From an uncultured delta proteobacterium (GTDB taxonomy: Bacteria > Desulfobacterota > RBG-13-43-22): a stretch of DNA of 64,000 bases. The translations under genes were made by a program, and so were the position numbers. The stretch lies in contig CAWJJC010000005.1 of the NCBI GenBank assembly GCA_963843145.1, positions 128,001-192,000 on the forward strand, in the 5' to 3' direction. Within the stretch, counting starts at the first letter, position 1, and each line of letters starts with the position of its first letter. Below the pieces are notes generated by a model, which was not told the DNA's origin, made no database searches, and saw only the letters and a list, made by a program, of their open reading frames with translations. Positions 2,785-44,166 of the stretch are shown here, piece after piece.

Positions 2785-3408
2785 ATGACCAAGAAAATCC
2801 TAAGCCTGCTATTACTTCCCCTGTTGCTCCTCATGTTACCGGCGACCGGTTGCCAATATTGGGACAATTGGACTAACTCCGGCGGAAGCTCCAGTTCCAA
2901 TTCCGGGACCAGTTCCACGAGCCAGGCGGAACAACCGCACGGGCAGGATACGGTAAATTTAATGGAAAGAACGCCCTTCAATGGCAAGGATCTCGATCCC
3001 GCCTTCTGGAGTAAAATGGAGGCCTACTGCAAGGCCGGGCCGACCAAACTGATCCTGGCCGACCTGAATGCAGTCCCGAATCAAATGACCCGGGCCGGAT
3101 TTCCCGGATTCTGGAAGGCGCAACTCTATGCCCTGGCCACCACCTACGCGGGCATGAACTGGTCCCCTTCTGTCATTGATCTCCGGGATTTGTATCAACA
3201 GCGTGGTGATATAAACGCCTGGTGGTCCCGGTATATGGGCGCCGTCTTGCAACTTATGCAGAAGGCCCCGCAGACCACGGCGCTCATCATTGTCAACGAC
3301 GGCCCGGACCGGGTGGGCTTCCGTCTCGGCCCCGCCATGCAGAGGCAAATGGGATCCGTTGCCGGCCGCGTTCAGCTCGGGTCCACCGTCCCCGAGTCTC
3401 AGTATTAA
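2785..3408 (+). CDS. Hypothetical lipoprotein
   Basis: RBS GGAGG, signal peptide with lipobox-like ATGC, Ser/Gly-rich linker. Stop codon coincides with the left end of shell repeat B. Confidence 0.65.
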   Translation: MTKKILSLLLLPLLLLMLPATGCQYWDNWTNSGGSSSSNSGTSSTSQAEQPHGQDTVNLMERTPFNGKDLDPAFWSKMEAYCKAGPTKLILADLNAVPNQMTRAGFPGFWKAQLYALATTYAGMNWSPSVIDLRDLYQQRGDINAWWSRYMGAVLQLMQKAPQTTALIIVNDGPDRVGFRLGPAMQRQMGSVAGRVQLGSTVPESQY

Positions 3409-3573
3409 ACCCTCATACCCGGGGTGGGCATCCCGAAGCATGAAAATAATAGGGCCGATACAACTAATTAACCCCTTGATATTAATAAATCAATAATCAA
3501 TTGATTCAATTAATCAATTATGATTATTGATTATTGGCCCTTTTGCAGGTCATGGAGTCTATTTTCGTATTAA
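3406..3573 (+). mobile_element. Shell repeat copy B with AT-rich AATCAAT/ATTGATT heptamer cargo
   Basis: Same left and right ends as copy A. Cargo is homologous to the reverse copy at 37067-37223. Confidence 0.75.
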
Positions 3574-3658
3574 CGCAACAACCTCCCCCCAACCCAAATC
3601 GTCTCCGTATCCTATAATCGCCCGGCGCTGAGCGCTTCGCACCGGGCGCCCGGCGCCT

Positions 3659-4528
3659 TCAAAGCGCCCGCATCCATTCCGGCCGTAATCCCACCTCCCC
3701 CTTGACGGCTTTGGCGATCAACCTTAAGGCCGGTTCTTTGCCTTCAGGATAACGGACTTTTATGGGCAGGTAATTGGAGGCGTGGTTGGAATAAAACAGC
3801 CCCCTAGAAAGCTGGGTGGCCGAAACCATCTCTCCCAGCTCCAGCAGGAATTCCTGCACCTCTAAAGGCTGAAATCCGCCTTCCGCGTATTCCCGACCCA
3901 GTTCGGTATTCGGTAAAACCATGACTGTCAGGGCGCCCACAAAGTCGGGGTCCATTTCGGTCAGCAACCGGCCCGTTTCCCGGGCATGTTCCCGGGACAA
4001 GGCCTTTCCGCCGATGCCCAGCAGCACCGTGACCGAGAGCCGGATCCCGGCCGCCTTGATCCTTTTCCCCTGTTGGATCAGGTTTTCAGCCGAAGTCCCT
4101 TTGCAGATCTTTTTCAACAGTTCCGGATGTCCGGTCTCCACCCCCAGATAAACTATCCCCAACCCCAGTTCCTTCAGTTGCCGCAACTCCTCGTCCGTCT
4201 TCATTTTGATGCTCTTGGCATTGGCATAAAGGCCAATCCGCCGAACCCAGGGGAGGTGCTCCCGGATCTGTTCCAGGATCCAAACCAATCGCTTCTGGGG
4301 GATGATCAGGGCGTCCCCGTCCATCAGAAAAACCCGGTCCTGCCGCCGGCAATACCGGGAGGCGAAGAGGATATCCTTCAGGATCCGTTCATCCTTTTTG
4401 ATCCGGAACCGCTTATCCTTGTAAGTCCCGCAAAAGGAACATTTATTATGCGAACAGCCGACCGTCACCTGCAACAGGATGCTGTCGGCTTCGCTGGGGG
4501 GACGAATCACCATCCCCTCGTATTCCAT
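3659..4528 (-). CDS. Radical SAM protein
   Basis: MEYEGMVIRPPSEA...GCSHNKCSFC (CX3CX2C), YLGVETG, SNHASNYLP. Start chosen at the ATG after GGAAG. Confidence 0.88.
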   Translation of the reverse strand: MEYEGMVIRPPSEADSILLQVTVGCSHNKCSFCGTYKDKRFRIKKDERILKDILFASRYCRRQDRVFLMDGDALIIPQKRLVWILEQIREHLPWVRRIGLYANAKSIKMKTDEELRQLKELGLGIVYLGVETGHPELLKKICKGTSAENLIQQGKRIKAAGIRLSVTVLLGIGGKALSREHARETGRLLTEMDPDFVGALTVMVLPNTELGREYAEGGFQPLEVQEFLLELGEMVSATQLSRGLFYSNHASNYLPIKVRYPEGKEPALRLIAKAVKGEVGLRPEWMRAL

Positions 4529-32764: not shown

Positions 32765-34270
32765 CTAGGGGGAGAGTTTTTCGGCATACCGACCCGGATC
32801 TTTCTCGAAACGGGCCCGGTTCTCGGCGGAAGCGAAATAATAAACTTTTTGATTGTAGGTACTTTTAAGCCCCGCCTTCTCCGCCTTTCGTATGGACACC
32901 TCCACACCGGATACCGGGTCGTTCTTCAGCGAACCGCTCATCCCGGCAGCGGCCAGGTCCATCCGGCTTTCGGAGTCGAGGAGAAAGGTACCGGAGGCGG
33001 CGATCCGTTCCCCGGCGGACAACCCTTGAACAATTTCAACCCGGTCACCGAAACGCCGGCCGATCTTAACTTCCCGGGGCTCGAAAAACCCTTGGCCCTG
33101 AGCCATAAAGACCGTTTTTTTAAGACCGGTATCGAGGACCGCATCCACCGGTACGATAATCGCCGGAGGGCCGCTGATAGGAATCTCAACATTGACAAAC
33201 ATATCAGGGCGCAGGATAAAACCGGGGTTGTCTGCCTCCAATCTCAATTTCAAGGTCCTGGTCGTCGGGTCGAACTCGGGCAGGACCTTGCTTATTCGGC
33301 CAACAAAGGTTTTATGGAGATAGGGAAGCTCCATCGTTACCCGTCTCCCGGGTTGGTATAAAGAGGTCTCGTTTTCAAAGATATCGGCCACGATCCAAAC
33401 CTTGGACAGATCCGCAATGCGGAAAAACTCCAACCCTCGGTCGAAACGCAGTCCCGGAGAAACATTTCGCGAGAGAATGAATCCGTTGATCGGAGAGCGG
33501 ATTTCAATGTCATCGGCGACCATTCCGCCCTTTTCCATTTCGTCAATCTGATGTTCGGATATCCCAAAGTTGAGCAGTGACTTTTTGTAATAATACTTTT
33601 GCGAGGCATCACTGGTAAAGTTGAGGTCCCGCGTGACATCCCTCAAAACATCCCTCATGGGTTTAAATTGACTCGGGCTCAGCCGGAGGTCCTTTTCTTC
33701 TCCTTTGGTTTCGGGGACCCCGGGTTTCTTGGTGCCCGGGGACACCGATCTAGTGGTTCCTGCGGGCGCAAGCCTACTGGTTCCTGGAGGCGCAAGCCTG
33801 GTGGCTCCTGGAGGCGCAGGCCTATTGGTTTCTACGGCTGCAGGATTGGTGGATCGGATTAAGTTTAGATAGACTTGAACCGTGGTCCGATAATCCACGG
33901 AGTAAAAGGTGGCCAAGAGCTCATTTTTCTTAACTAAGCTTCCGGTAGTGACCGGCTGAACATCCTCAATCCAACCGTTAAGGGCGGCGTTGATTCGGAA
34001 GACCCGGTTTTCATCCGGCGTTACCCTGCCCAGCACCCGCATGGTATAGCTCCAGGGAGCCTTTTCCACCGTGACTACTTTAACGCCGATCATCTGCTGT
34101 TTTTCCGGGCTCACTTTCACGGCCCCCGGCGGCAGGTCCTCTTCATCGCCGCCGGATACTATCCGGGCAGGGCTGCTCTTGGGAGCCGCCTGCCGGTTAT
34201 GCCTGGAAATCGCTACATAGGATCCGACCGCCACCAAAATCAGTATAATAAGATAAATGACTTTTTTCAC
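32765..34270 (-). CDS. cusB: CusB-like RND periplasmic adaptor with C-terminal YHS-like domain
   Basis: IADLSKVWIVADIFE, TRTLKLR, LRPDMFV, FLLDSES, DPVSG..YYF.S..RFEKDP. Confidence 0.88.
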   Translation of the reverse strand: MKKVIYLIILILVAVGSYVAISRHNRQAAPKSSPARIVSGGDEEDLPPGAVKVSPEKQQMIGVKVVTVEKAPWSYTMRVLGRVTPDENRVFRINAALNGWIEDVQPVTTGSLVKKNELLATFYSVDYRTTVQVYLNLIRSTNPAAVETNRPAPPGATRLAPPGTSRLAPAGTTRSVSPGTKKPGVPETKGEEKDLRLSPSQFKPMRDVLRDVTRDLNFTSDASQKYYYKKSLLNFGISEHQIDEMEKGGMVADDIEIRSPINGFILSRNVSPGLRFDRGLEFFRIADLSKVWIVADIFENETSLYQPGRRVTMELPYLHKTFVGRISKVLPEFDPTTRTLKLRLEADNPGFILRPDMFVNVEIPISGPPAIIVPVDAVLDTGLKKTVFMAQGQGFFEPREVKIGRRFGDRVEIVQGLSAGERIAASGTFLLDSESRMDLAAAGMSGSLKNDPVSGVEVSIRKAEKAGLKSTYNQKVYYFASAENRARFEKDPGRYAEKLSP

Positions 34271-35689: not shown

Positions 35690-35747
35690 AGGCGACTAAA
35701 TAAACATCGAACTTCGAACATCGAACGCCCAACCTTGAATGAAAATA

Positions 35748-36167: not shown

Positions 36168-36620
36168 ATGATGATGAAAAAATGGTTGAGGGCCCTTCCT
36201 TTTTTCTGTCTTCTGGCCTTTTTGGTTCTTCCAGGAAACCTTCTGGGCGCTGACTGGAAGCTATGCTCGGAAAATGAATTCTTAACCCTATACTTTGATG
36301 TAAACAGTTTGAACCGAAGGGATGCGGACCGGATTAAGGTCTGGACTAAATACGTTCCCAAGGGGAAAAAAGGGAAGGATTTTTGGGCTCATATCCGCAC
36401 CTTCGACAAGATACCGATCAAGCAATTCCAGCACTATGCCTATAGCGTAGTCCTCTATGAATTCAGTTGCCCGGGAAAGACTTACCAGCTAATATCCGGG
36501 CTCGACTTTGACCAGGAAAAAAAGATGCTCAGCGAATTGCAGCCCTCCAAATCCAAACCTATCTTCCCGGAGTCCCTCCCCGAAACCCTTTATCAGATAG
36601 TTTGCCCCGGGGAAAGATGA
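36168..36620 (+). CDS. Surface-adhesin E-like secreted protein
   Basis: Signal peptide, ADW..., YFDVNSL, KVWTK, YEFSC, P.S..ETLYQIVC. Confidence 0.7.
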   Translation: MMMKKWLRALPFFCLLAFLVLPGNLLGADWKLCSENEFLTLYFDVNSLNRRDADRIKVWTKYVPKGKKGKDFWAHIRTFDKIPIKQFQHYAYSVVLYEFSCPGKTYQLISGLDFDQEKKMLSELQPSKSKPIFPESLPETLYQIVCPGER

Positions 36621-36745
36621 GGGGTAGGGTCTAGGGTGTAGGGGGAAAACCAAAGCGTTCTATATCGTATCTTCTTTTTCTTCCCTCTTCCCTCTTCCCT
36701 CTTCCATCTCTCTCACCCTGCCCCCAATACCCTCACCCCTAAACC

Positions 36746-36967
36746 CTATATCTTCTCGACTAAAACGACCTTATCCCGGCTTTTCTCGCCCCGGATGATG
36801 CGGATTTCGCTTTTGCGAACGTTCAGGTATTCGGCCAGAATCTTGATCAAGGCTTCGTTGGCCCGGCCCTCAATCGCCGGGGCGGTAAGATAAACCTTGA
36901 GTCGGTCTTTCTCGACAACCACCTTGTTTTGTTTGGCTTTGGGTATTACCCGGATGGAATGGCGCAT
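36746..36967 (-). CDS. DUF167 (YggU-like) protein
   Basis: RVIPKAK, LTAPAIEGRANEALI, GEKSRDK. Confidence 0.88.
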   Translation of the reverse strand: MRHSIRVIPKAKQNKVVVEKDRLKVYLTAPAIEGRANEALIKILAEYLNVRKSEIRIIRGEKSRDKVVLVEKI

Positions 36968-36970
36968 AGG

Positions 36971-37223
36971 TAATACGAAAATAGGGCACAGGGTATAAGG
37001 TTCAAGGTATAAGGTTTGGAGAATACCATTTTAATGCTTCGTGGGTGCCCCGCGGGGCATGTGGGTTTAGTATGTAAATAAGCCTCTATGACCTGCAATA
37101 AGGCCAATAATCAATTGTCAATGATCAATTGATTATTGATTATTGATATCCTGCGGTTAAACAGTTGTCTCGCCCCTTTTATTTTTATGCTACGAGGGTA
37201 CCCACCAGGGGCCTAGTGTTTAA
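36971..37223 (-). mobile_element. Two tandem reversed shell repeats (36971-37069 and 37067-37223)
   Basis: Both ends present twice. The second cargo matches copy B; the first is a TATAAGG-type heptamer cargo. Confidence 0.72.
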
Positions 37224-37250
37224 CTCGGGGCTAAAATACCATTTTTCCCC

Positions 37251-37278
37251 TTGACATTCCACCAGGATCATTTAAATT
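37251..37278 (+). promoter_or_regulatory. Putative sigma70 promoter of the peptide gene
   Basis: TTGACA-16 nt-TAAATT. Confidence 0.4.
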
Positions 37279-37320
37279 TTAATATAACAAACATCGCACG
37301 AAGCGAGAAAGGGGCCGGTC

Positions 37321-37383
37321 ATGAAGATCCGCAAAGTGGTTAAGGTATCCAAAGGTCTTTGCAAGTGTAAAAAGACCTGCTAA
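37321..37383 (+). CDS. 20-aa Cys/Lys-rich peptide MKIRKVVKVSKGLCKCKKTC, candidate RiPP precursor
   Basis: Below the ORF-track cutoff. RBS GAAAGGGG upstream, terminator downstream, adjacent to an RRE-rSAM-SPASM gene. Confidence 0.72.
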   Translation: MKIRKVVKVSKGLCKCKKTC

Positions 37384-37400
37384 AAGAAATTTACTATTTC

Positions 37401-37435
37401 AAAAAAGGCCGATAGTTGATCTGTCGGCCTTTTTT
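37401..37435 (+). terminator. Intrinsic terminator after the peptide gene
   Basis: AAAAAAGGCCGATAG-TTGAT-CTGTCGGCCTTTTTT. Confidence 0.8.
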
Positions 37436-37465
37436 ATTCCAAAACCTAAATGAGATGGTTTTGCA

Positions 37466-37825
37466 ATGCCCAAAACCGATTTCCAAGATTATATCTGCCG
37501 GCCCTTCTGCGATTTTTTTAAGCCGAGGGTCAAAGAAGAGCTGACCTGCCGGGGGGCGCTGCTGGTGGAACACCTGGTCCGGCGCCGGCGTCTCATCCCC
37601 GGAGACTTCCAGAGCCTGGAAAAAAGCGAATCGTTATTCCCGGGCCAAGAGGCCGATTTGGAAGCCGCTGTTTGCCGGGGCTGTCCTTTCCAAGCCGAAG
37701 ATTGTGATTTTATGTCCGCCAATCCGCCATCCGACTGTCGGCCCTGCGGCGGATTGGTTCTCCTGCGGCAGCTCACGAAAAAAGGGTTGATCACCATCCC
37801 GGACCTATTCCATGACGACAACTGA
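37466..37825 (+). CDS. Cys-rich hypothetical protein (8 Cys, internally duplicated motif)
   Basis: CRPFCDFF..TCRGALL and CRGCPF..CDF..CRPCGGLVLL; overlaps the rSAM start. Confidence 0.75.
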   Translation: MPKTDFQDYICRPFCDFFKPRVKEELTCRGALLVEHLVRRRRLIPGDFQSLEKSESLFPGQEADLEAAVCRGCPFQAEDCDFMSANPPSDCRPCGGLVLLRQLTKKGLITIPDLFHDDN

Positions 37826-38990
37826 TTGGCAGGAATCCTTCCTCTCCTTGCATCCCCGGGTTTTCCTCAAACGCCTGGAACAGCCCTATCTTTATCACCT
37901 GGACCGGGATGAATTGTACGAAATCGACGAACAGGCCCTTCTTTTCTTAAGCCTTTGTGATGGAACCACCCAAGGAAAATCCCTGACCGGCGATGCGGAA
38001 TTCGTTTCTTTTTGTCTGGAGGAAGGGCTCTTGGAAACCAACAGCCAACCGATCCTCAAGAACGTCTCCATCGGAGAAGCCCCCGTTCCTTCTCTGCGTT
38101 ACCTGGAGCTGCAACTGCTCCACCAATGCAATCTGCGCTGTCGACATTGCTATCTGGGTCCACCCCGCCCCGGGCGGTTGTCCTTGGAAGAGGCCGTCAC
38201 CATCACCCGGGAATTTGCCGCCCGGGGCGGCTTGCGGCTTTTGATTTCCGGGGGCGAACCCCTGCTTTATCCCGAACTCCCCTCCTTCCTGGCGCAGACC
38301 CAGGGCCTGGGCATCCGTCGTATTCTCTTAACCAATGGGACCCTGCTCACTACGGAAAGCCTCCTCCAACTTCAGGTGGAAGAGATTCAGGTCAGCCTGG
38401 ACGGCTGGCGCACGGGTCACGAAGCTATCCGGGGTGTAGGGACCTTCGATCAAACCCTTAAGGGTCTCCTGGCCGCCCGGGAAGCCGGACTGCCCATTGC
38501 CATCGCCACCATGGTTCATCGGAAGAACCTGGTTGAATTCGATCAACTGGCCCGTCTGGTAAAAGAGATCGGGGCTGTTGAATGGGGAGTGGATGTGCCC
38601 TGCCTGGCAGGTTCTATGAAAGAACATTCCGATCTACTGGTCCCTTACGAAGAGGCCGTCCCCTTTCTAAATTTTTCCTTTGGGGGGGGCTATCACGGCT
38701 CCGCGGAGGGATATGCCTGTGGACGCCATTTGCTGACGGTGTTACCCGGCGGGCAGGCGGTAAAGTGCGGCTTCTATGAAGAGCAGATCCTGGGAGATGC
38801 TCGCCGGGGCCTGATCGAATGTTGGCTAAAGCTTCAACATATCCCGCTGGAAAAACTGGAATGCCGGGGGTGTCCGGCACTCGAGGAGTGCGCCGGGGGA
38901 TGCCGTTACCGGGCCGATCATCCTTTCGGTCGGGACCCGCTGATGTGCGCCCTGTATGAAGTGGCGGGGGATAGACCTTTAACACATTAG
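37812..38990 (+). CDS. Radical SAM/SPASM protein with N-terminal PqqD-like RRE
   Basis: YLYHLDRDELYEIDEQALLFLSLCDG (RRE-like), CNLRCRHC, SGGEPL, TNG, SLDG, SPASM C..C..CX2CX5CX3C..DPLMC. Confidence 0.88.
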   Translation: MTTTDWQESFLSLHPRVFLKRLEQPYLYHLDRDELYEIDEQALLFLSLCDGTTQGKSLTGDAEFVSFCLEEGLLETNSQPILKNVSIGEAPVPSLRYLELQLLHQCNLRCRHCYLGPPRPGRLSLEEAVTITREFAARGGLRLLISGGEPLLYPELPSFLAQTQGLGIRRILLTNGTLLTTESLLQLQVEEIQVSLDGWRTGHEAIRGVGTFDQTLKGLLAAREAGLPIAIATMVHRKNLVEFDQLARLVKEIGAVEWGVDVPCLAGSMKEHSDLLVPYEEAVPFLNFSFGGGYHGSAEGYACGRHLLTVLPGGQAVKCGFYEEQILGDARRGLIECWLKLQHIPLEKLECRGCPALEECAGGCRYRADHPFGRDPLMCALYEVAGDRPLTH

Positions 38991-39158
38991 GTGCTTACAT
39001 CTATTAAATTGACAGAGGACCTATAAATCCGAATCCGAAGAGAAGCACAAAGGTCCAAAATCCAAATCATCAAAAAAAATCGTTTCGAATTTTGAAATTC
39101 GGTTCGGATTTGGCCCAAAAAGTCAAATTGTAGGTAGCTATTTAAGGAGGTCTAACAA

Positions 39159-40025
39159 GTGGGTAAAATATTAGTCACCGGCGCCACCGGCACCATCGGC
39201 AGTCAGTTGGTGCGGCGGCTCAAAGAAAAGAACCTGGAGGTCATTGCCGGGGTCAGCAGCCTTTCCAAAGCCGGACGCTTCTCCAAACAGGGCATCGATA
39301 CGACCATCCTCAACTTTGCCCAACCCGATTCTCTGGAACCGGCCTTCGAGGGGGTCGATCGTCTATTTCTTTTGCTGCCCCTGGCGGAACCCATGGAGGA
39401 TTGGGGCTTGCGGGCCATAGCCGGCGCTCAGAAAGCCGGGGTCCAATTCATCCTTCGCTCATCGTGCTTGGGGGCCGATTCGCCAGCCGAATTTGAACTG
39501 GGTCAGGTGCATGGCCGAATCGATCAGGCGCTGATCGATAGCGGCCTGGCCTACACGATCGTTCGCCCCAATTCGTTCATGCAGAACTACCTAAATTTTT
39601 TCGGAGGGATGATCAAGGACCAACAGTCCATCTTCCTGCCCCAGGGCCAGGGCCGGATCAGCCTGATCGACGTCCGAGACATCGCCGCCGTGGATACTGA
39701 AATCCTGACCGCTCCCGAAAACCATAGGCAGAAGGCCTATGACCTGACCGGTCCGGAGGCGTTAACCAACGAGGAAATCGCCCGGATCCTCGCCCGGGTC
39801 CTGGGGAAACCAATCACCTCTGTGGATATCGACGAATTAACCGCCCGCCAGGCCATGGCCCGGAGGGGGATGCCGGAATGGAATATTCGCCTGTTGGAAA
39901 GCCTGAACCGTCGTATCAAGCTGGGGATGACGGCCGAAGTCACTAACTGGGTCCGGATGATTGCCGGGAGACAGCCGACAACCTTTGAGCAATTTGCCTG
40001 GGACCATGCGGATGCCTGGAAGTAA
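39159..40025 (+). CDS. NmrA-like NAD(P)-binding oxidoreductase
   Basis: ILVTGATGTIG, RPNSFMQN, IDVRDIA, YDLTGPEAL. RBS AAGGAG. Confidence 0.9.
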   Translation: MGKILVTGATGTIGSQLVRRLKEKNLEVIAGVSSLSKAGRFSKQGIDTTILNFAQPDSLEPAFEGVDRLFLLLPLAEPMEDWGLRAIAGAQKAGVQFILRSSCLGADSPAEFELGQVHGRIDQALIDSGLAYTIVRPNSFMQNYLNFFGGMIKDQQSIFLPQGQGRISLIDVRDIAAVDTEILTAPENHRQKAYDLTGPEALTNEEIARILARVLGKPITSVDIDELTARQAMARRGMPEWNIRLLESLNRRIKLGMTAEVTNWVRMIAGRQPTTFEQFAWDHADAWK

Positions 40026-40141
40026 CGGTGAACGTCCAACATCGAATGTCAAATGGAGGTTTGTTTTTCATTCGAAGTTGGGCGTTCGATGTTCAATGTT
40101 CGTCTAGCATTTCGAATTTTATATTTACCCATTAAGGATCT

Positions 40142-41806
40142 ATGATCTCTAGCCGACATCTTCGCCTATTGTCTTTTGTCCTGCTGTTCTATTGTCTAAT
40201 CCCTCAAATCTCCTGGGGTTCTACTCCCGACACCTCTTTTTGTACCGATCCGGAAAACCTATTAGTCCTTCGGCTTTATTATCAATCGCCGAAGAATCTC
40301 AAAGCCGTCGCCGCCCAATATGATATCTGGGAGGCCCATCCCGAAGAGGGTTTTGTGGTCATCGGCACCCGCTGTGGGGAATTGGAAAAAATCAGCGGTC
40401 AGGGCTGGACGGTGAAAATCGACCCCACCTTGACTCGGGAGACCAGGGCCAGTCTGCTCGGAATTCCCAAATTCCCCTGTTATCGGAGCGTGGAAGAGAC
40501 CTTGGCGGTCCTTAAAAACCTGGCCGCCGACTATCCGGCCTTAACCGACCTCATCACTATCGGCCAGAGTTGGGATAAAAGCACCTCCGAAGGACCTGCA
40601 GGATTCGATTTACAGGCCCTCCGGATAACCAATAAGCAGATACCAGGACCCAAACCGGTTTTTTTCCTGATGGCCGCCATCCATGGCCGTGAATTAACCA
40701 CCTCGGAAACCGCTCTCCGTTTAGCCGAAACCCTGTTGCAACAGTATGGGGTCAACCCTGAGATCACCCTGCTCCTGGATTACCAGGAAATTCAGGTGGT
40801 CCCCCTGATGAACCCCGACGGCCGAAAGTGGGCCGAACAAGGTTATCTTTGGAGGAAAAATACCGATTCCCTCTGGGGGTGTACCTTTCCAAACTTTGGG
40901 GTCGATCTGAATCGCAACCATTCCTTCCACTGGGGAGGCGCCGGCGACGCTCCCTGCGATGAAATCTATCAAGGACCCGCGGCGGCTTCGGAACCGGAGA
41001 CCCAGGCCCTGCAAAATTATGTTCGCCTCCTTTTTCCGGATCAGCGCGGTCCTTTGGATACAGATCCCGCCCCGGTAGACACTGCCGGCATCTTTGTCAC
41101 CCTCCATTCCTACGGCAGATTGGTTCTCTGGCCCTGGGGCTGGACCGATCAATTCCCGGCTCCCAACGACGCTCAACTCCAGGCGATCGGCGTTAAACTG
41201 GCCTCCTTTAATCACTATACCCCCAAGCAATCAAGCCTTCTGTATCCCGCTACCGGGACTTCCGATGACTGGGCTTATGGTGAGATGGGGATAGCCTCTT
41301 TTACCTTTGAAATGGGAACACAATTTTTCCAGGATTGTTCGAGTTTTGAAGCCACTATCTGGCCGGACAACTTGAAAGCCCTGCTTTATGCTTTCAAAAT
41401 CGCCTCCGCACCCTACCGCCTGGCCTACGGCCCGGATGCCTTGTCCCCCCTGGTCAATCCCCCTTGGGGCAAACAGGGGGAACCTCTTGAACTGACCGCC
41501 CTGATCTCCGACCAGCAGATTGGAGGGCTTTCCCTCCAGCAGGCGGAATATTTCATTCTCTCCGAACATCAGGCAAATCCCCCCGGCACTCCCGGGACCG
41601 GACTACCCCTGACGCCAACCGACGGTCAATGGGATAGCCCGATTGAAACGGTCAGGGCCGTCATTGATACCGCCCATCTGGTCCCCGGGAATTACTTGAT
41701 CGCCCTGCGGGGCCAGGATGTGGATGGAAACTGGGGCCCTCTCACCGCGACTTCTTTGCGGATTCGCTATGACTACCAGTTATTTTTCCCCATCTTCTTG
41801 AATTAG
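40142..41806 (+). CDS. Secreted M14 zinc carboxypeptidase (carboxypeptidase T-like) with C-terminal Ig-like domain
   Basis: IHGRE, NPDG, WRKN, GVDLNRN, SEPET, LHSYG, FTFE. Confidence 0.9.
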   Translation: MISSRHLRLLSFVLLFYCLIPQISWGSTPDTSFCTDPENLLVLRLYYQSPKNLKAVAAQYDIWEAHPEEGFVVIGTRCGELEKISGQGWTVKIDPTLTRETRASLLGIPKFPCYRSVEETLAVLKNLAADYPALTDLITIGQSWDKSTSEGPAGFDLQALRITNKQIPGPKPVFFLMAAIHGRELTTSETALRLAETLLQQYGVNPEITLLLDYQEIQVVPLMNPDGRKWAEQGYLWRKNTDSLWGCTFPNFGVDLNRNHSFHWGGAGDAPCDEIYQGPAAASEPETQALQNYVRLLFPDQRGPLDTDPAPVDTAGIFVTLHSYGRLVLWPWGWTDQFPAPNDAQLQAIGVKLASFNHYTPKQSSLLYPATGTSDDWAYGEMGIASFTFEMGTQFFQDCSSFEATIWPDNLKALLYAFKIASAPYRLAYGPDALSPLVNPPWGKQGEPLELTALISDQQIGGLSLQQAEYFILSEHQANPPGTPGTGLPLTPTDGQWDSPIETVRAVIDTAHLVPGNYLIALRGQDVDGNWGPLTATSLRIRYDYQLFFPIFLN

Positions 41807-43011: not shown

Positions 43012-43143
43012 TTCTTCCGCTGGATGGAGAGTGTGAGGGTCGCTGATAGGTTGAACGTCGAACATCGAACGTCCAACATCGAATGTTGAATGGCGGTTAA
43101 TATTTCATTCGAGGTTGGGCGTTCGATGTTTAATGTTCGATGT

Positions 43144-44166
43144 TCATTTTTCTTTCAAGCTCGGGTCCAGGATTTCTATCTTGGCCTTCTGGCGCAGATT
43201 GTGGACATATTCATTAACGGTCTTTTGAAATTTCTCATTTTTCACCTGGGCCTCGACCTGTCGGCGAACCTCCTCCAGGGGAGTCACCCCCGCGGGCTTT
43301 TTCCCGTAAACCTGGATTAGATGAAAACCGAACTGGGTTTCCACTACGGGACTGATCTCCCCTTCCTTTAAGGCTAAGGCCGCCTTTTCAAAAGCCGGGA
43401 CCATCCGTCCCTTTTCAAAGTACCCTAAATCTCCGCCCCGGGCCTTACTCGGGTCCTCGGAATACGTCTTGGCTAATTCGGAGAAATCCTTGCCGGCCTG
43501 GGCCTCCTTAAGCACGGATTCTATTTTTTCCTTGGCCAGCTTCTTTTGTTCCTCGGTGGCCTCCTTGGGCACGCGAATCAATATGTGACGCGCCCCAATA
43601 AGTTCTCCATGGCGATACCGCTCCGGATTGGCCTGGTAAGCCGCTTCCAATTCCGCGTCGGAGACTTTCACCAGCGGCTGGATTTTCTGGTTGATGACGG
43701 CCCGGACATAAATGTTCTTTTTGATATTGTCCCTGGCCTGGTCCTTCGTCAGCCCCTCTTTGGCTAATTGCTCCTCGAATTTCTCTTTGGAACCGGCCTG
43801 TTTTTCAGCCGCAGCCCACATGGCCTCCACTTGCGAGTTCACTTCGGGAAGGTTCAGGGCTTTCCCTTCCTGGTAAAGTAACTCCACGGCTACGAATTGA
43901 TCCAAGGCCTTGCGGCGAAGCGTTTCCGGCCCCTCTTTATCCGCTTCTTTATCTCCAAACTGGCGGCGCATCTCCCGGATGGTCATCTGCAGGTCCCGGT
44001 CATAGATTTTCGTGCCCTCAACCACTGCCACCGGTGCATCGGCTTTGGCCGCTACCACTTTTTCCTTGGTGGCGGAAGGGGGCTCCTGCGCCCAAACCGT
44101 AAAAGCGATCAAGATGCTTAGAATCCAGGATGCAACCCAAACCAGGCCTTGTTCTTTTCTTGGCAT
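43144..44166 (-). CDS. PpiC/PrsA-type peptidyl-prolyl isomerase
   Basis: ARHILI, FSELAKTYSED, GGDLG, MVPAFE, TQFGFHLI. Confidence 0.9.
   Translation of the reverse strand: MPRKEQGLVWVASWILSILIAFTVWAQEPPSATKEKVVAAKADAPVAVVEGTKIYDRDLQMTIREMRRQFGDKEADKEGPETLRRKALDQFVAVELLYQEGKALNLPEVNSQVEAMWAAAEKQAGSKEKFEEQLAKEGLTKDQARDNIKKNIYVRAVINQKIQPLVKVSDAELEAAYQANPERYRHGELIGARHILIRVPKEATEEQKKLAKEKIESVLKEAQAGKDFSELAKTYSEDPSKARGGDLGYFEKGRMVPAFEKAALALKEGEISPVVETQFGFHLIQVYGKKPAGVTPLEEVRRQVEAQVKNEKFQKTVNEYVHNLRQKAKIEILDPSLKEK

Follow-up and report, generated by a model that had tools for sequence, protein, structure and literature searches.

The question raised by this locus is whether a 20-codon open reading frame (ORF) encodes a functional peptide, and whether that peptide is the substrate of the radical S-adenosylmethionine (rSAM) enzyme encoded just downstream of it. 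The locus lies in a stretch of 64,000 nucleotides of DNA from an uncultured delta proteobacterium, called here the window (G000:C5:128001-192000, where G000 is the host genome and C5 the contig; on the contig the rSAM gene is C5:165812-166987). An earlier note, made from the letters of the window, had described there a candidate new system for a ribosomally made peptide with post-translational modifications (RiPP), composed of a Cys-containing 20-residue peptide, an 8-Cys protein and an rSAM enzyme with a C-terminal SPASM domain and an N-terminal RiPP recognition element (RRE). This work shows that the small ORF is a real, conserved gene linked to the rSAM gene. Our reading of the whole, to which we give a probability of about 0.7, is that the locus represents a new and unusually conserved rSAM peptide-maturation family within the RRE–rSAM–SPASM kind. 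The features of the locus are listed in Table 1.

An orthologue of the rSAM gene is present in five of 40 relatives of G000, with 95, 84, 71, 48 and 46% identity, and in all five a 20-codon ORF lies about 0.45 kb 5' of it. The peptide is identical where the enzymes are 95, 84 and 71% identical, and 13–15 of its 20 residues are identical in the two distant relatives (rSAM 48 and 46%), where it reads MKIRKVEKSSRGLCKCRSSC and MKIKKIERTQRGLCKCKSSC. Species-representative genomes were scanned with two family-specific motif patterns and then with tblastn (E <= 1e-3), which confirmed 558 relatives of the rSAM, some of which may be paralogues; the locus counts given below refer to the best 80 of these 558 (L013-L092), or to 81 loci when L001 is added. 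According to the record titles, the 80 loci come from many orders of Desulfobacterota and from Spirochaetota, Nitrospirota, Nitrospinota, Chloroflexota and a Nannocystaceae metagenome-assembled genome (MAG); Desulfonema limicola, Desulfuromonas, Trichloromonas and Geobacteraceae MAGs are among the names in the titles. The peptide gene is found in 69 of them, complete in 68 and cut by the contig end in one (L053). Among the 11 loci that lack it, five have less than 600 nt 5' of the rSAM gene (L049, L050, L052, L057 and L065), and three belong to the type in which the peptide gene lies downstream and have less than 130 nt of downstream flank (L074, L075 and L077); the three others are considered below with the points that weigh against our reading. 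Selenocysteine variants of the peptide were considered and rejected: reading TGA as selenocysteine gave no peptide in the peptide-less loci, and the three matches containing 'U' are ordinary TGA stops.

Co-occurrence of the two genes was analysed in 401 genomes taken evenly from the phylum, with E <= 1e-70 as the limit for an rSAM orthologue, which 44 of them carry. A strict DNA pattern (GLCKCxxxC followed by a stop) matched in 30 genomes, and the reversed pattern, used as a control, gave one match in all. Twenty-nine of the 30 are rSAM-positive and carry both genes on the same contig, about 0.4–1.7 kb apart; the remaining one, G278, reads GFCKCFWRC, which looks like a chance match. Fifteen rSAM-positive genomes have no strict match, and 11 of these encode a variant peptide (TCKCKASC or MCKC) at the fetched locus. 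A looser genome-wide pattern added three more, with the peptide gene just downstream of the rSAM gene in G179 and on another contig in G072 and G172. The only rSAM-positive genome in which no peptide was found, G237, is 86% complete, and its rSAM gene starts at base 3 of a contig. The peptide gene is present, then, in 43 of the 44 rSAM-positive genomes, and one of the 357 rSAM-negative genomes matched the pattern (the chance-like match mentioned above). An encoded precursor that is co-located and co-occurs with its modifying enzyme is what is expected of a RiPP system, and co-location and co-occurrence of the peptide and rSAM genes are what we observe, in 69 of 80 loci and 43 of 44 genomes; the conserved small ORF upstream of homologous rSAM genes that the earlier note had asked to look for exists.

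Two arrangements seen in this sample deserve mention in their own right. In G072 and G172, which belong to one genus, the peptide gene (G072:C66 and G172:C11; L131:1501-1563 and L132:1501-1563, both on the minus strand) lies between a UPF0261 gene and a gene of the deoxyhypusine-synthase family. This family modifies a lysine, which makes it a curious neighbour given the invariant lysines of the peptide. The peptide gene is single in G000, forms a tandem pair in G235, and occurs a second time at another place in G224. In G224 the first copy is on contig C1 with the Cys-rich and rSAM genes; the second, VKIKKVKRAVRGLCKCKKSC (G224:C4; L128:2940-3002, plus strand), is followed by genes for an S-adenosylmethionine (SAM) methyltransferase and a His-tailed cupin (ORFs 3153-3881 and 3878-4201), away from the rSAM gene.

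The pattern of conservation is that of a translated sequence, kept at the protein level. The peptide consensus is M-K-I-[KR]-K-V-x-K-x-x-x-G-L-C-K-C-[KGS]-x-[ST]-C, with a basic N-terminal half, MKIxKVxK, and a C-terminal motif C14-K15-C16-x-x-S/T19-C20 that is invariant. A second type, M-[TR]-I-K-K-V-x-K-[KR]-x-[SA]-[TA]-[TM]-C-K-C-K-A-S-C, is encoded downstream of the rSAM gene in Chloroflexota, Nitrospirota and some Desulfobacterota-labelled genomes. In 62 distinct 20-codon sequences the mean column entropy is 0.62 bits at the first codon position, 0.60 at the second and 1.34 at the third, about twice as high, and invariant residues are drawn from several codons, as Ile3 is encoded by ATC, ATT or ATA and Val6 by all four GTN. 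A GGAG/GGAGG-like purine run lies within 20 nt 5' of the start in nearly all of 73 copies of the gene (as judged by eye), and a hairpin of -13 kcal/mol or stronger is found within 80 nt past the stop in 61 of 72 distinct flanks, as counted on raw folding energies. None of ten peptide variants occurs in a collection of 15 billion proteins, which indicates that gene callers do not call this gene.

These same features, a short ORF with seven Lys and three Cys codons followed by a terminator-like hairpin, could also be those of an attenuator leader, in which ribosomes held up at Lys or Cys codons would determine how much transcription passes the hairpin into the enzyme genes, with the peptide as a functionless by-product; a sub-threshold match to the Rfam Thr_leader model at 37262-37437 (25.3 bits compared with a gathering score of 55, E 0.08) goes in the same direction. 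We reject this possibility as very improbable, mainly because the peptide gene is downstream of the rSAM gene or unlinked to it in many genomes: it is downstream in Chloroflexota, Nitrospirota and others, and on other contigs in G072, G172 and G224. In addition, residues other than Lys and Cys (I3, V6, G12, L13 and S19) are kept through synonymous changes, and the fold of 37285-37440 contains the terminator alone, without a competing anti-terminator pairing. No Rfam model reached its gathering score in a scan of 36500-39500.

Table 1. Features of the peptide–rSAM locus (positions in the window)
Feature	Position	Strand	Basis or remark
Sigma-70-like promoter candidate, TTGACA + 16 nt + TAAATT	37251-37278	+	10/12 consensus matches
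Shine-Dalgarno-like AAAGGGG	37308-37314	+	Purine-rich; ends 6 nt 5' of the ATG
Putative precursor peptide gene, 20 codons, ATG start, MKIRKVVKVSKGLCKCKKTC	37321-37383	+	ORF; conservation beside orthologous rSAM genes
Intrinsic-terminator-like hairpin (A-tract, 9-bp GC-rich stem core, U-tract)	37401-37435	+	Separates the peptide gene from the enzyme genes
Cys-rich accessory protein, 119 aa, 8 Cys	37466-37825	+	ORF; its last 14 nt are shared with the rSAM gene, which starts at 37812
Radical SAM/SPASM enzyme, 392 aa	37812-38990	+	PF04055, TIGR04085, Cys motifs; N-terminal ~95 aa PqqD-like (suggestive)
CX3CX2C of the rSAM, residues 106-113	38127-38150	+	Cluster motif
SPASM domain of the rSAM	38718-38948	+	TIGR04085 match at 38718-38921

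The ribosome-binding site, the TTGACA element and the terminator hairpin that had been described around the small ORF are all present, as is the overlap between the Cys-rich ORF and the rSAM gene. The promoter candidate is a consensus match, weak on its own: a consensus scan finds four promoter-like sites in the region, compared with 1.8 +/- 1.4 in shuffled sequences. The hairpin begins 18 nt past the peptide stop, its arms are A6-GGCCGAUAG and, after the loop, CUGUCGGCC-U6, and the 82-nt spacer that contains it folds with -30.7 kcal/mol (z = -7.2), a value equalled by none of 200 shuffles. A consensus terminator scan did not pick it up, because its U-run forms part of the stem. A search of sequencing runs returned 15 runs, each with a share of sampled words of at most 0.20, and one of the 15 is RNA (X7). 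An RNA contig of 151 nt from this run is 100% identical to 37224-37374, and a second covers 38889-38956 and then diverges. As the library may contain DNA and the first contig starts 5' of the proposed promoter, we take these contigs only as a hint of expression.

Upstream of this promoter candidate, by about 115 nt, an AT-rich, near-perfect palindrome of 34 nt with 13 pairs (37105-37138) is situated in the spacer that separates the peptide gene from the divergently oriented DUF167 gene. It is flanked by two related stretches of about 43 nt, 37030-37072 (TTTTAATGCTTCGTGGGTGCC...) and 37181-37223 (TTTTATGCTACGAGGGTACCC...), which were seen by eye and not reported by the repeat finder. The palindrome resembles a Fur box, and control of the Fur/Zur type was considered and rejected: scored against the 19-mer Fur consensus, 70 homologous upstream regions give 9–13 matches out of 19, which is chance level, and no conserved site.

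The enzyme itself belongs to the radical SAM superfamily (PF04055, 76.5 bits for a gathering score of 29.5) and to the SPASM subfamily (TIGR04085, 32.2 bits for a cut-off of 27). Its CX3CX2C cysteines (C106, C110 and C113) and the seven cysteines of the SPASM motif CX9-15GX4C ... CX2CX5CX3C ... C (C303, C319, C351, C354, C360, C364 and C379) are invariant in 17 orthologues, in agreement with the full SPASM set that had been described. The nearest solved relatives by sequence, for the rSAM core only, are the peptide maturases SkfB (the best, 78.5 bits), PqqE, CteB and SuiB, along with BlsE and MoaA.

The N-terminal domain is a more delicate case. The segment had been called PqqD-like, and profile–profile comparison gives this moderate support. 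When the alignment of 23 such domains is compared by hhalign with 16 PqqD domains from relatives, the score is 28.5 and the probability 71%; reversed alignments score 8.8 and 9.1, an unrelated Cys-rich alignment (A4) 12.8, and the best of 30 column shuffles 15.5. The aligned part places residues 27-58 (YLYHLDRDELYEIDEQALLFLSLCDG...) on PqqD positions 4-35. This corresponds to the strand–turn–helix part, in which PqqD-type domains have their most conserved motif. Sequence models do not recognise the segment: the Pfam PqqD model has no match there (see below), and a PqqD search of the G000 genome matched two other places and not the rSAM gene. A profile of the 23 domains found no relative among solved structures. 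We consider that the moderate profile–profile similarity is suggestive of a PqqD-like domain, which would act as an RRE. A second peptide-maturase-like locus, in which a PqqD-family gene adjoins two rSAM/SPASM genes, is present on the same contig, outside the window (G000:C5:88000-90500).

A homologue of the 119-aa Cys-rich protein is encoded directly 5' of the rSAM gene in 70 of the 81 loci. Thirteen of the 81 loci carry it as an in-frame N-terminal extension of the rSAM, in a single ORF of 500–546 aa (L064, L066-L069, L071, L072, L076, L078, L080, L082, L084 and L092), and L127 is a further fusion; in the unfused form the start and stop codons of the two genes overlap. Seven of the eight cysteines are conserved, as C11-x3-C15-x12-C28 and C70-x2-C73-x6-C80-x13-C94-G-G, and Chloroflexota-type loci have a remnant of 65–86 aa with four Cys that retains the C-x2-C-D-F ... 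C-G part. A hidden Markov model search of 1.84 billion representative proteins gave 259 clusters, nearly all of 90–150 aa and mostly of about 110–130 aa, with a few fused to rSAM domains. In one database protein of 233 aa (P0285) the Cys-rich domain (10-112) is naturally joined to the cupin of this system (157-221). Two other apparent fusions, P0221 (a response regulator–PAS–HisKA_3 protein carrying the Cys-rich domain) and P0246, appear to result from the merging of separate gene calls and were not used. Both a Pfam scan of 22 members and a profile search of the PDB gave chance-level matches only, and in database source names the homologues are 'hypothetical protein'.

The repeated fusion of this protein to the rSAM and its translational coupling lead us to regard it as part of the enzyme, whether subunit or domain, and not as a substrate. 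The fixed spacing of its cysteines suggests a metal or Fe–S site, and it probably binds a metal or an Fe–S cluster. The '8-Cys protein' proposed as an accessory factor is present with its eight cysteines, and is given here a more precise putative role. The converse possibility is that the 119-aa protein is the true rSAM substrate, carrying protein-level thioethers as in CrpA/CrpC, and that the 20-mer has another role. A SPASM rSAM that makes ranthionine links in an adjoining Cys-rich protein has been shown (PMC13692751), and the protein studied here is Cys-rich, has no known family and always adjoins the enzyme. However, a protein joined to the enzyme at 13 of the 81 loci, and to a cupin once, has the look typical of a subunit or domain, and the cysteines have fixed CxxxC and CxxC-type spacings instead of forming repeats. 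Moreover, Chloroflexota-type loci keep the 20-aa peptide but only the four-Cys remnant of the protein, and TIGR04463, the CrpC family, is not among the 25 best NCBIfam matches of our enzyme (all of 88 bits or less). We consider this possibility quite unlikely.

Returning to the peptide as the substrate of the rSAM, to which gene organisation points, we propose the following scheme. A separately terminated small gene would give a strongly basic peptide of 20 residues, and the translationally coupled genes past the hairpin would give the rSAM/SPASM enzyme and the 7-Cys protein working as a part of it. The hairpin would let the peptide transcript exceed that of the enzyme, ensuring a high peptide to enzyme ratio. 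The N-terminal PqqD-like domain, in the role of an RRE, would hold the basic, beta-prone half MKIxKVxK, while the radical-SAM core and two auxiliary SPASM clusters would abstract a hydrogen atom in C-K-C-x-x-S/T-C. Most likely, at least one Cys-derived thioether bridge would form, with Lys15, Ser/Thr19 or both. Of the known SPASM reactions on peptides that contain Cys, a thioether of the sactionine or ranthionine type to one of these residues is the most economical guess; it is a tentative one, at clearly less than even odds. In many genomes further enzymes could extend the pathway, namely a His-tailed cupin, a SAM methyltransferase, a second rSAM, an ATP-grasp enzyme, a flavin adenine dinucleotide (FAD) oxidoreductase or a ligase related to cysteinyl-tRNA synthetase (CysRS).

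Several observations weigh against this reading. Three loci, L016, L037 and L090, have no peptide gene despite adequate flanks; L037 also has an insertion of unrelated genes and a truncated Cys-rich gene. In G072 and G172 peptide and rSAM genes are on different contigs. The invariance of C14, C16 and C20 counts partly by construction, because the pattern used to collect the sequences of the entropy set required Cys at these positions; earlier, looser patterns asked only for C-x-C-x3-C at the end of the ORF. Five Desulfuromonadales-type peptides have one residue (Q or L) beyond Cys20, which argues against a chemistry requiring a free Cys20 carboxylate and indicates no particular cross-link. A precursor of 20 residues leaves little room for a leader and a core. 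On the side of the enzyme, the Pfam PqqD model (PF05402) has no match to the isolated residues 1-95 at E <= 10, the profile–profile match spans only about 32–34 columns, and the Pfam SPASM model (PF13186) does not match the C-terminal domain at E <= 0.1, so that TIGR04085 is the only SPASM model passed. The link with the cupin is not universal, since the cupin homologue of G000 is unlinked (see below). Finally, both the modification of the peptide and its contact with the enzyme are presumed from gene linkage.

The genes that accompany the system bear on the nature of the product. Downstream of the rSAM gene, 37 of the 81 loci encode a cupin of some 110 aa in which HAC(Y), GHEE and the tail GGHSxxGHHH are conserved and which matches Cupin_2 weakly; in G000 a homologue with 54% identity is located elsewhere, beside gltX (C25:6269-6598). 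Subsets of loci add a second rSAM/SPASM enzyme, a methyltransferase, an amine-oxidase-type flavoprotein, an ATP-grasp enzyme (in loci with a downstream peptide gene), a CysRS catalytic-domain protein and DUF364/DUF4213 genes. These last, annotated 'putative heavy-metal chelation', lie upstream in eight loci. The CysRS-like protein is found in six loci (L036:5454-6728 and five others of that cluster), 3' of the cupin; it has 417–424 aa and matches PF01406 only (241.7 bits), with no match to the anticodon domain, and may act as a Cys ligase and not as a tRNA synthetase.

Among the loci examined, neither an exporter nor an endopeptidase is recurrent. The window does contain a secreted M14 zinc carboxypeptidase of 554 aa with a signal-peptide-like start, two genes downstream (40142-41806, plus strand), and a CusB/HlyD-type membrane-fusion protein with a C-terminal YHS domain (32765-34270, minus strand); neither was seen in the distant loci examined. 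The remark that no protease is adjacent needs qualifying for this window, given the carboxypeptidase. Because the whole peptide is conserved across phyla, genes for export or for a leader protease do not accompany it, and several of its partners have a metal flavour, the product is more likely to be a cell-internal metal-binding or cofactor-like molecule than an antibiotic.

A rival proposal along these lines is that the peptide does not end as a cross-linked product, but either gives rise to a peptide-derived cofactor or metallophore or serves as a reusable scaffold, with a Cys-containing end that is processed, cut off and rebuilt. It would account for the conservation of the whole peptide, and not of the core alone, in at least five phyla; such end-to-end conservation of the precursor is typical of PqqA, for pyrroloquinoline quinone (PQQ), and of MftA, for mycofactocin, and not of antibiotics. 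The metal-flavoured partners (the cupin tail in 37 of 81 loci, DUF364/DUF4213 in eight loci) and the lack of an exporter conserved with the system also fit, and the ligase-type partners (CysRS-like in six loci, ATP-grasp) could rebuild the C-terminus. These ligase-type genes are nevertheless present in minorities of loci and absent from the window, no conserved protease is there to release a small product, and the extra C-terminal residue of five peptides fits a strict C-terminal-Cys scaffold poorly. Since the rSAM would still act on the peptide, this proposal overlaps with the maturation scheme preferred here; taken separately it appears unlikely. In a bolder version, which we regard as doubtful, the 20-mer would give rise to a novel Cys/Lys-based molecule, derived from the peptide and acting as a cofactor or as a prosthetic group that binds metal, the equivalent in anaerobes of PQQ or mycofactocin. 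The 7-Cys domain would then be a new auxiliary cluster module, the cupin and lineage-specific ligases would metallate or trim the product, and sulfate reducers, syntrophs, Nitrospirota and Dehalococcoidia would widely carry a system that annotation overlooks because its peptide gene is never called.

A palindromic repeat with arms of the type GAACGTCSAACATCGAA ... TTCGATGTT was also noticed in three intergenic spacers of the window (35698-35745, 40030-40102 and 43053-43149). Its copies are 85–89% alike, and it looks like a repetitive extragenic palindromic (REP) or miniature inverted-repeat transposable element (MITE)-type sequence.

If the family proposed here is real, it represents an unnoticed peptide-modification system in hundreds of species of environmentally important anaerobes, likely overlooked because its 20-codon precursor was never called as a gene. 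The precursor would be among the shortest known, and its end-to-end conservation across phyla argues for a housekeeping or cofactor-like role and not for chemical warfare. The orphan 7-Cys domain and the His-tailed cupin would be new parts for radical-SAM peptide chemistry.

The novelty of the family was assessed against known systems. The 25 best NCBIfam rSAM/SPASM families score 50–88 bits for cut-offs of 180–850, which none of them reaches (the best, AhbD, has 88 for 500), and 43 further families match more weakly. Equivalogs below cut-off, among the matches listed, include AhbD, AhbC, NirJ, StsB, ScmE/F, PqqE, MftC, GeoRSP, ACGX, AlbA, WgkB, SbtM and BlsE. The models for SCIFF and geopeptide systems gave no better result: the SCIFF maturase model TIGR03974 has no match to C5:165812-166987 at E <= 0.01 and the SCIFF peptide model TIGR03973 none at E <= 10, and the geopeptide maturase model TIGR04280 scores 37 bits for a cut-off of 400, with no match to the peptide model TIGR04229 at E <= 10. 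The absence of an exact match to a described family, on which the claim of novelty depended, is thus verified for these models. A literature search, which left subscription journals and supplements mostly outside, found no description of the system, and for motifs of the CxCxxxC type only metallothioneins and CopY; an earlier description is possible, for example in large rSAM-RiPP atlases.

As in the SCIFF/ranthipeptide system (CteA/CteB), a short Cys peptide, strongly conserved across a large clade of anaerobes, is associated with one rSAM-SPASM enzyme with, here, a putative RRE, and the locus has neither an exporter nor a protease of its own alongside; CteB also ranks among the closest solved relatives. 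The present peptide differs by its 20 aa and three Cys, compared with about 45 aa and six Cys in SCIFF, and the system by the addition of a 7-Cys accessory protein or domain, and often of a cupin. SCIFF hosts are Clostridia, whereas the hosts here are Desulfobacterota, Nitrospirota, Chloroflexota and Spirochaetota. The geopeptide system resembles ours by a very short peptide (a model of 22 positions) encoded beside an rSAM maturase in Geobacter-type bacteria. Mycofactocin (MftA/MftB/MftC) and PQQ (PqqA/PqqD/PqqE) share with it a short, fully conserved precursor, an RRE/PqqD element (putative here), an rSAM/SPASM enzyme and, if our view of the product is correct, the intracellular use of that product. 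They differ in that the enzyme falls far below the models (PqqE 61 bits for 381, MftC 60 for 265) and other Pqq or Mft genes are not nearby. The target residues are Glu/Tyr or Val-Tyr in PQQ and mycofactocin, whereas the motif here is made of Cys, Lys and Ser. With sactipeptide maturases (SkfB, AlbA and StsB), which perform Cys-to-carbon thioether chemistry on a short peptide, the resemblance lies in the enzyme, as SkfB is the best solved match and StsB and AlbA are among the NCBIfam matches. These two models are far from reached (StsB 71 bits for 625, AlbA 54 for 850), no immunity or export gene is present here, and, in contrast with sactipeptides, the precursor is conserved across phyla instead of being variable.

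The closest printed precedent that we found comes from another family. In Methanococcus voltae, CrpC, a SPASM rSAM with a predicted RRE encoded beside the Cys-rich protein CrpA, is described as installing thioether (ranthionine) links (PMC13692751). The juxtaposition of a SPASM rSAM gene with a Cys-rich protein gene is common to both systems. However, CrpC is a member of TIGR04463 and acts on a large protein that is built of repeats and has a leader of 47 residues (PMC13692751), whereas the Cys-rich protein described here is fused to the enzyme in many genomes, and the conserved partner of the pair is a separate peptide of 20 amino acids.

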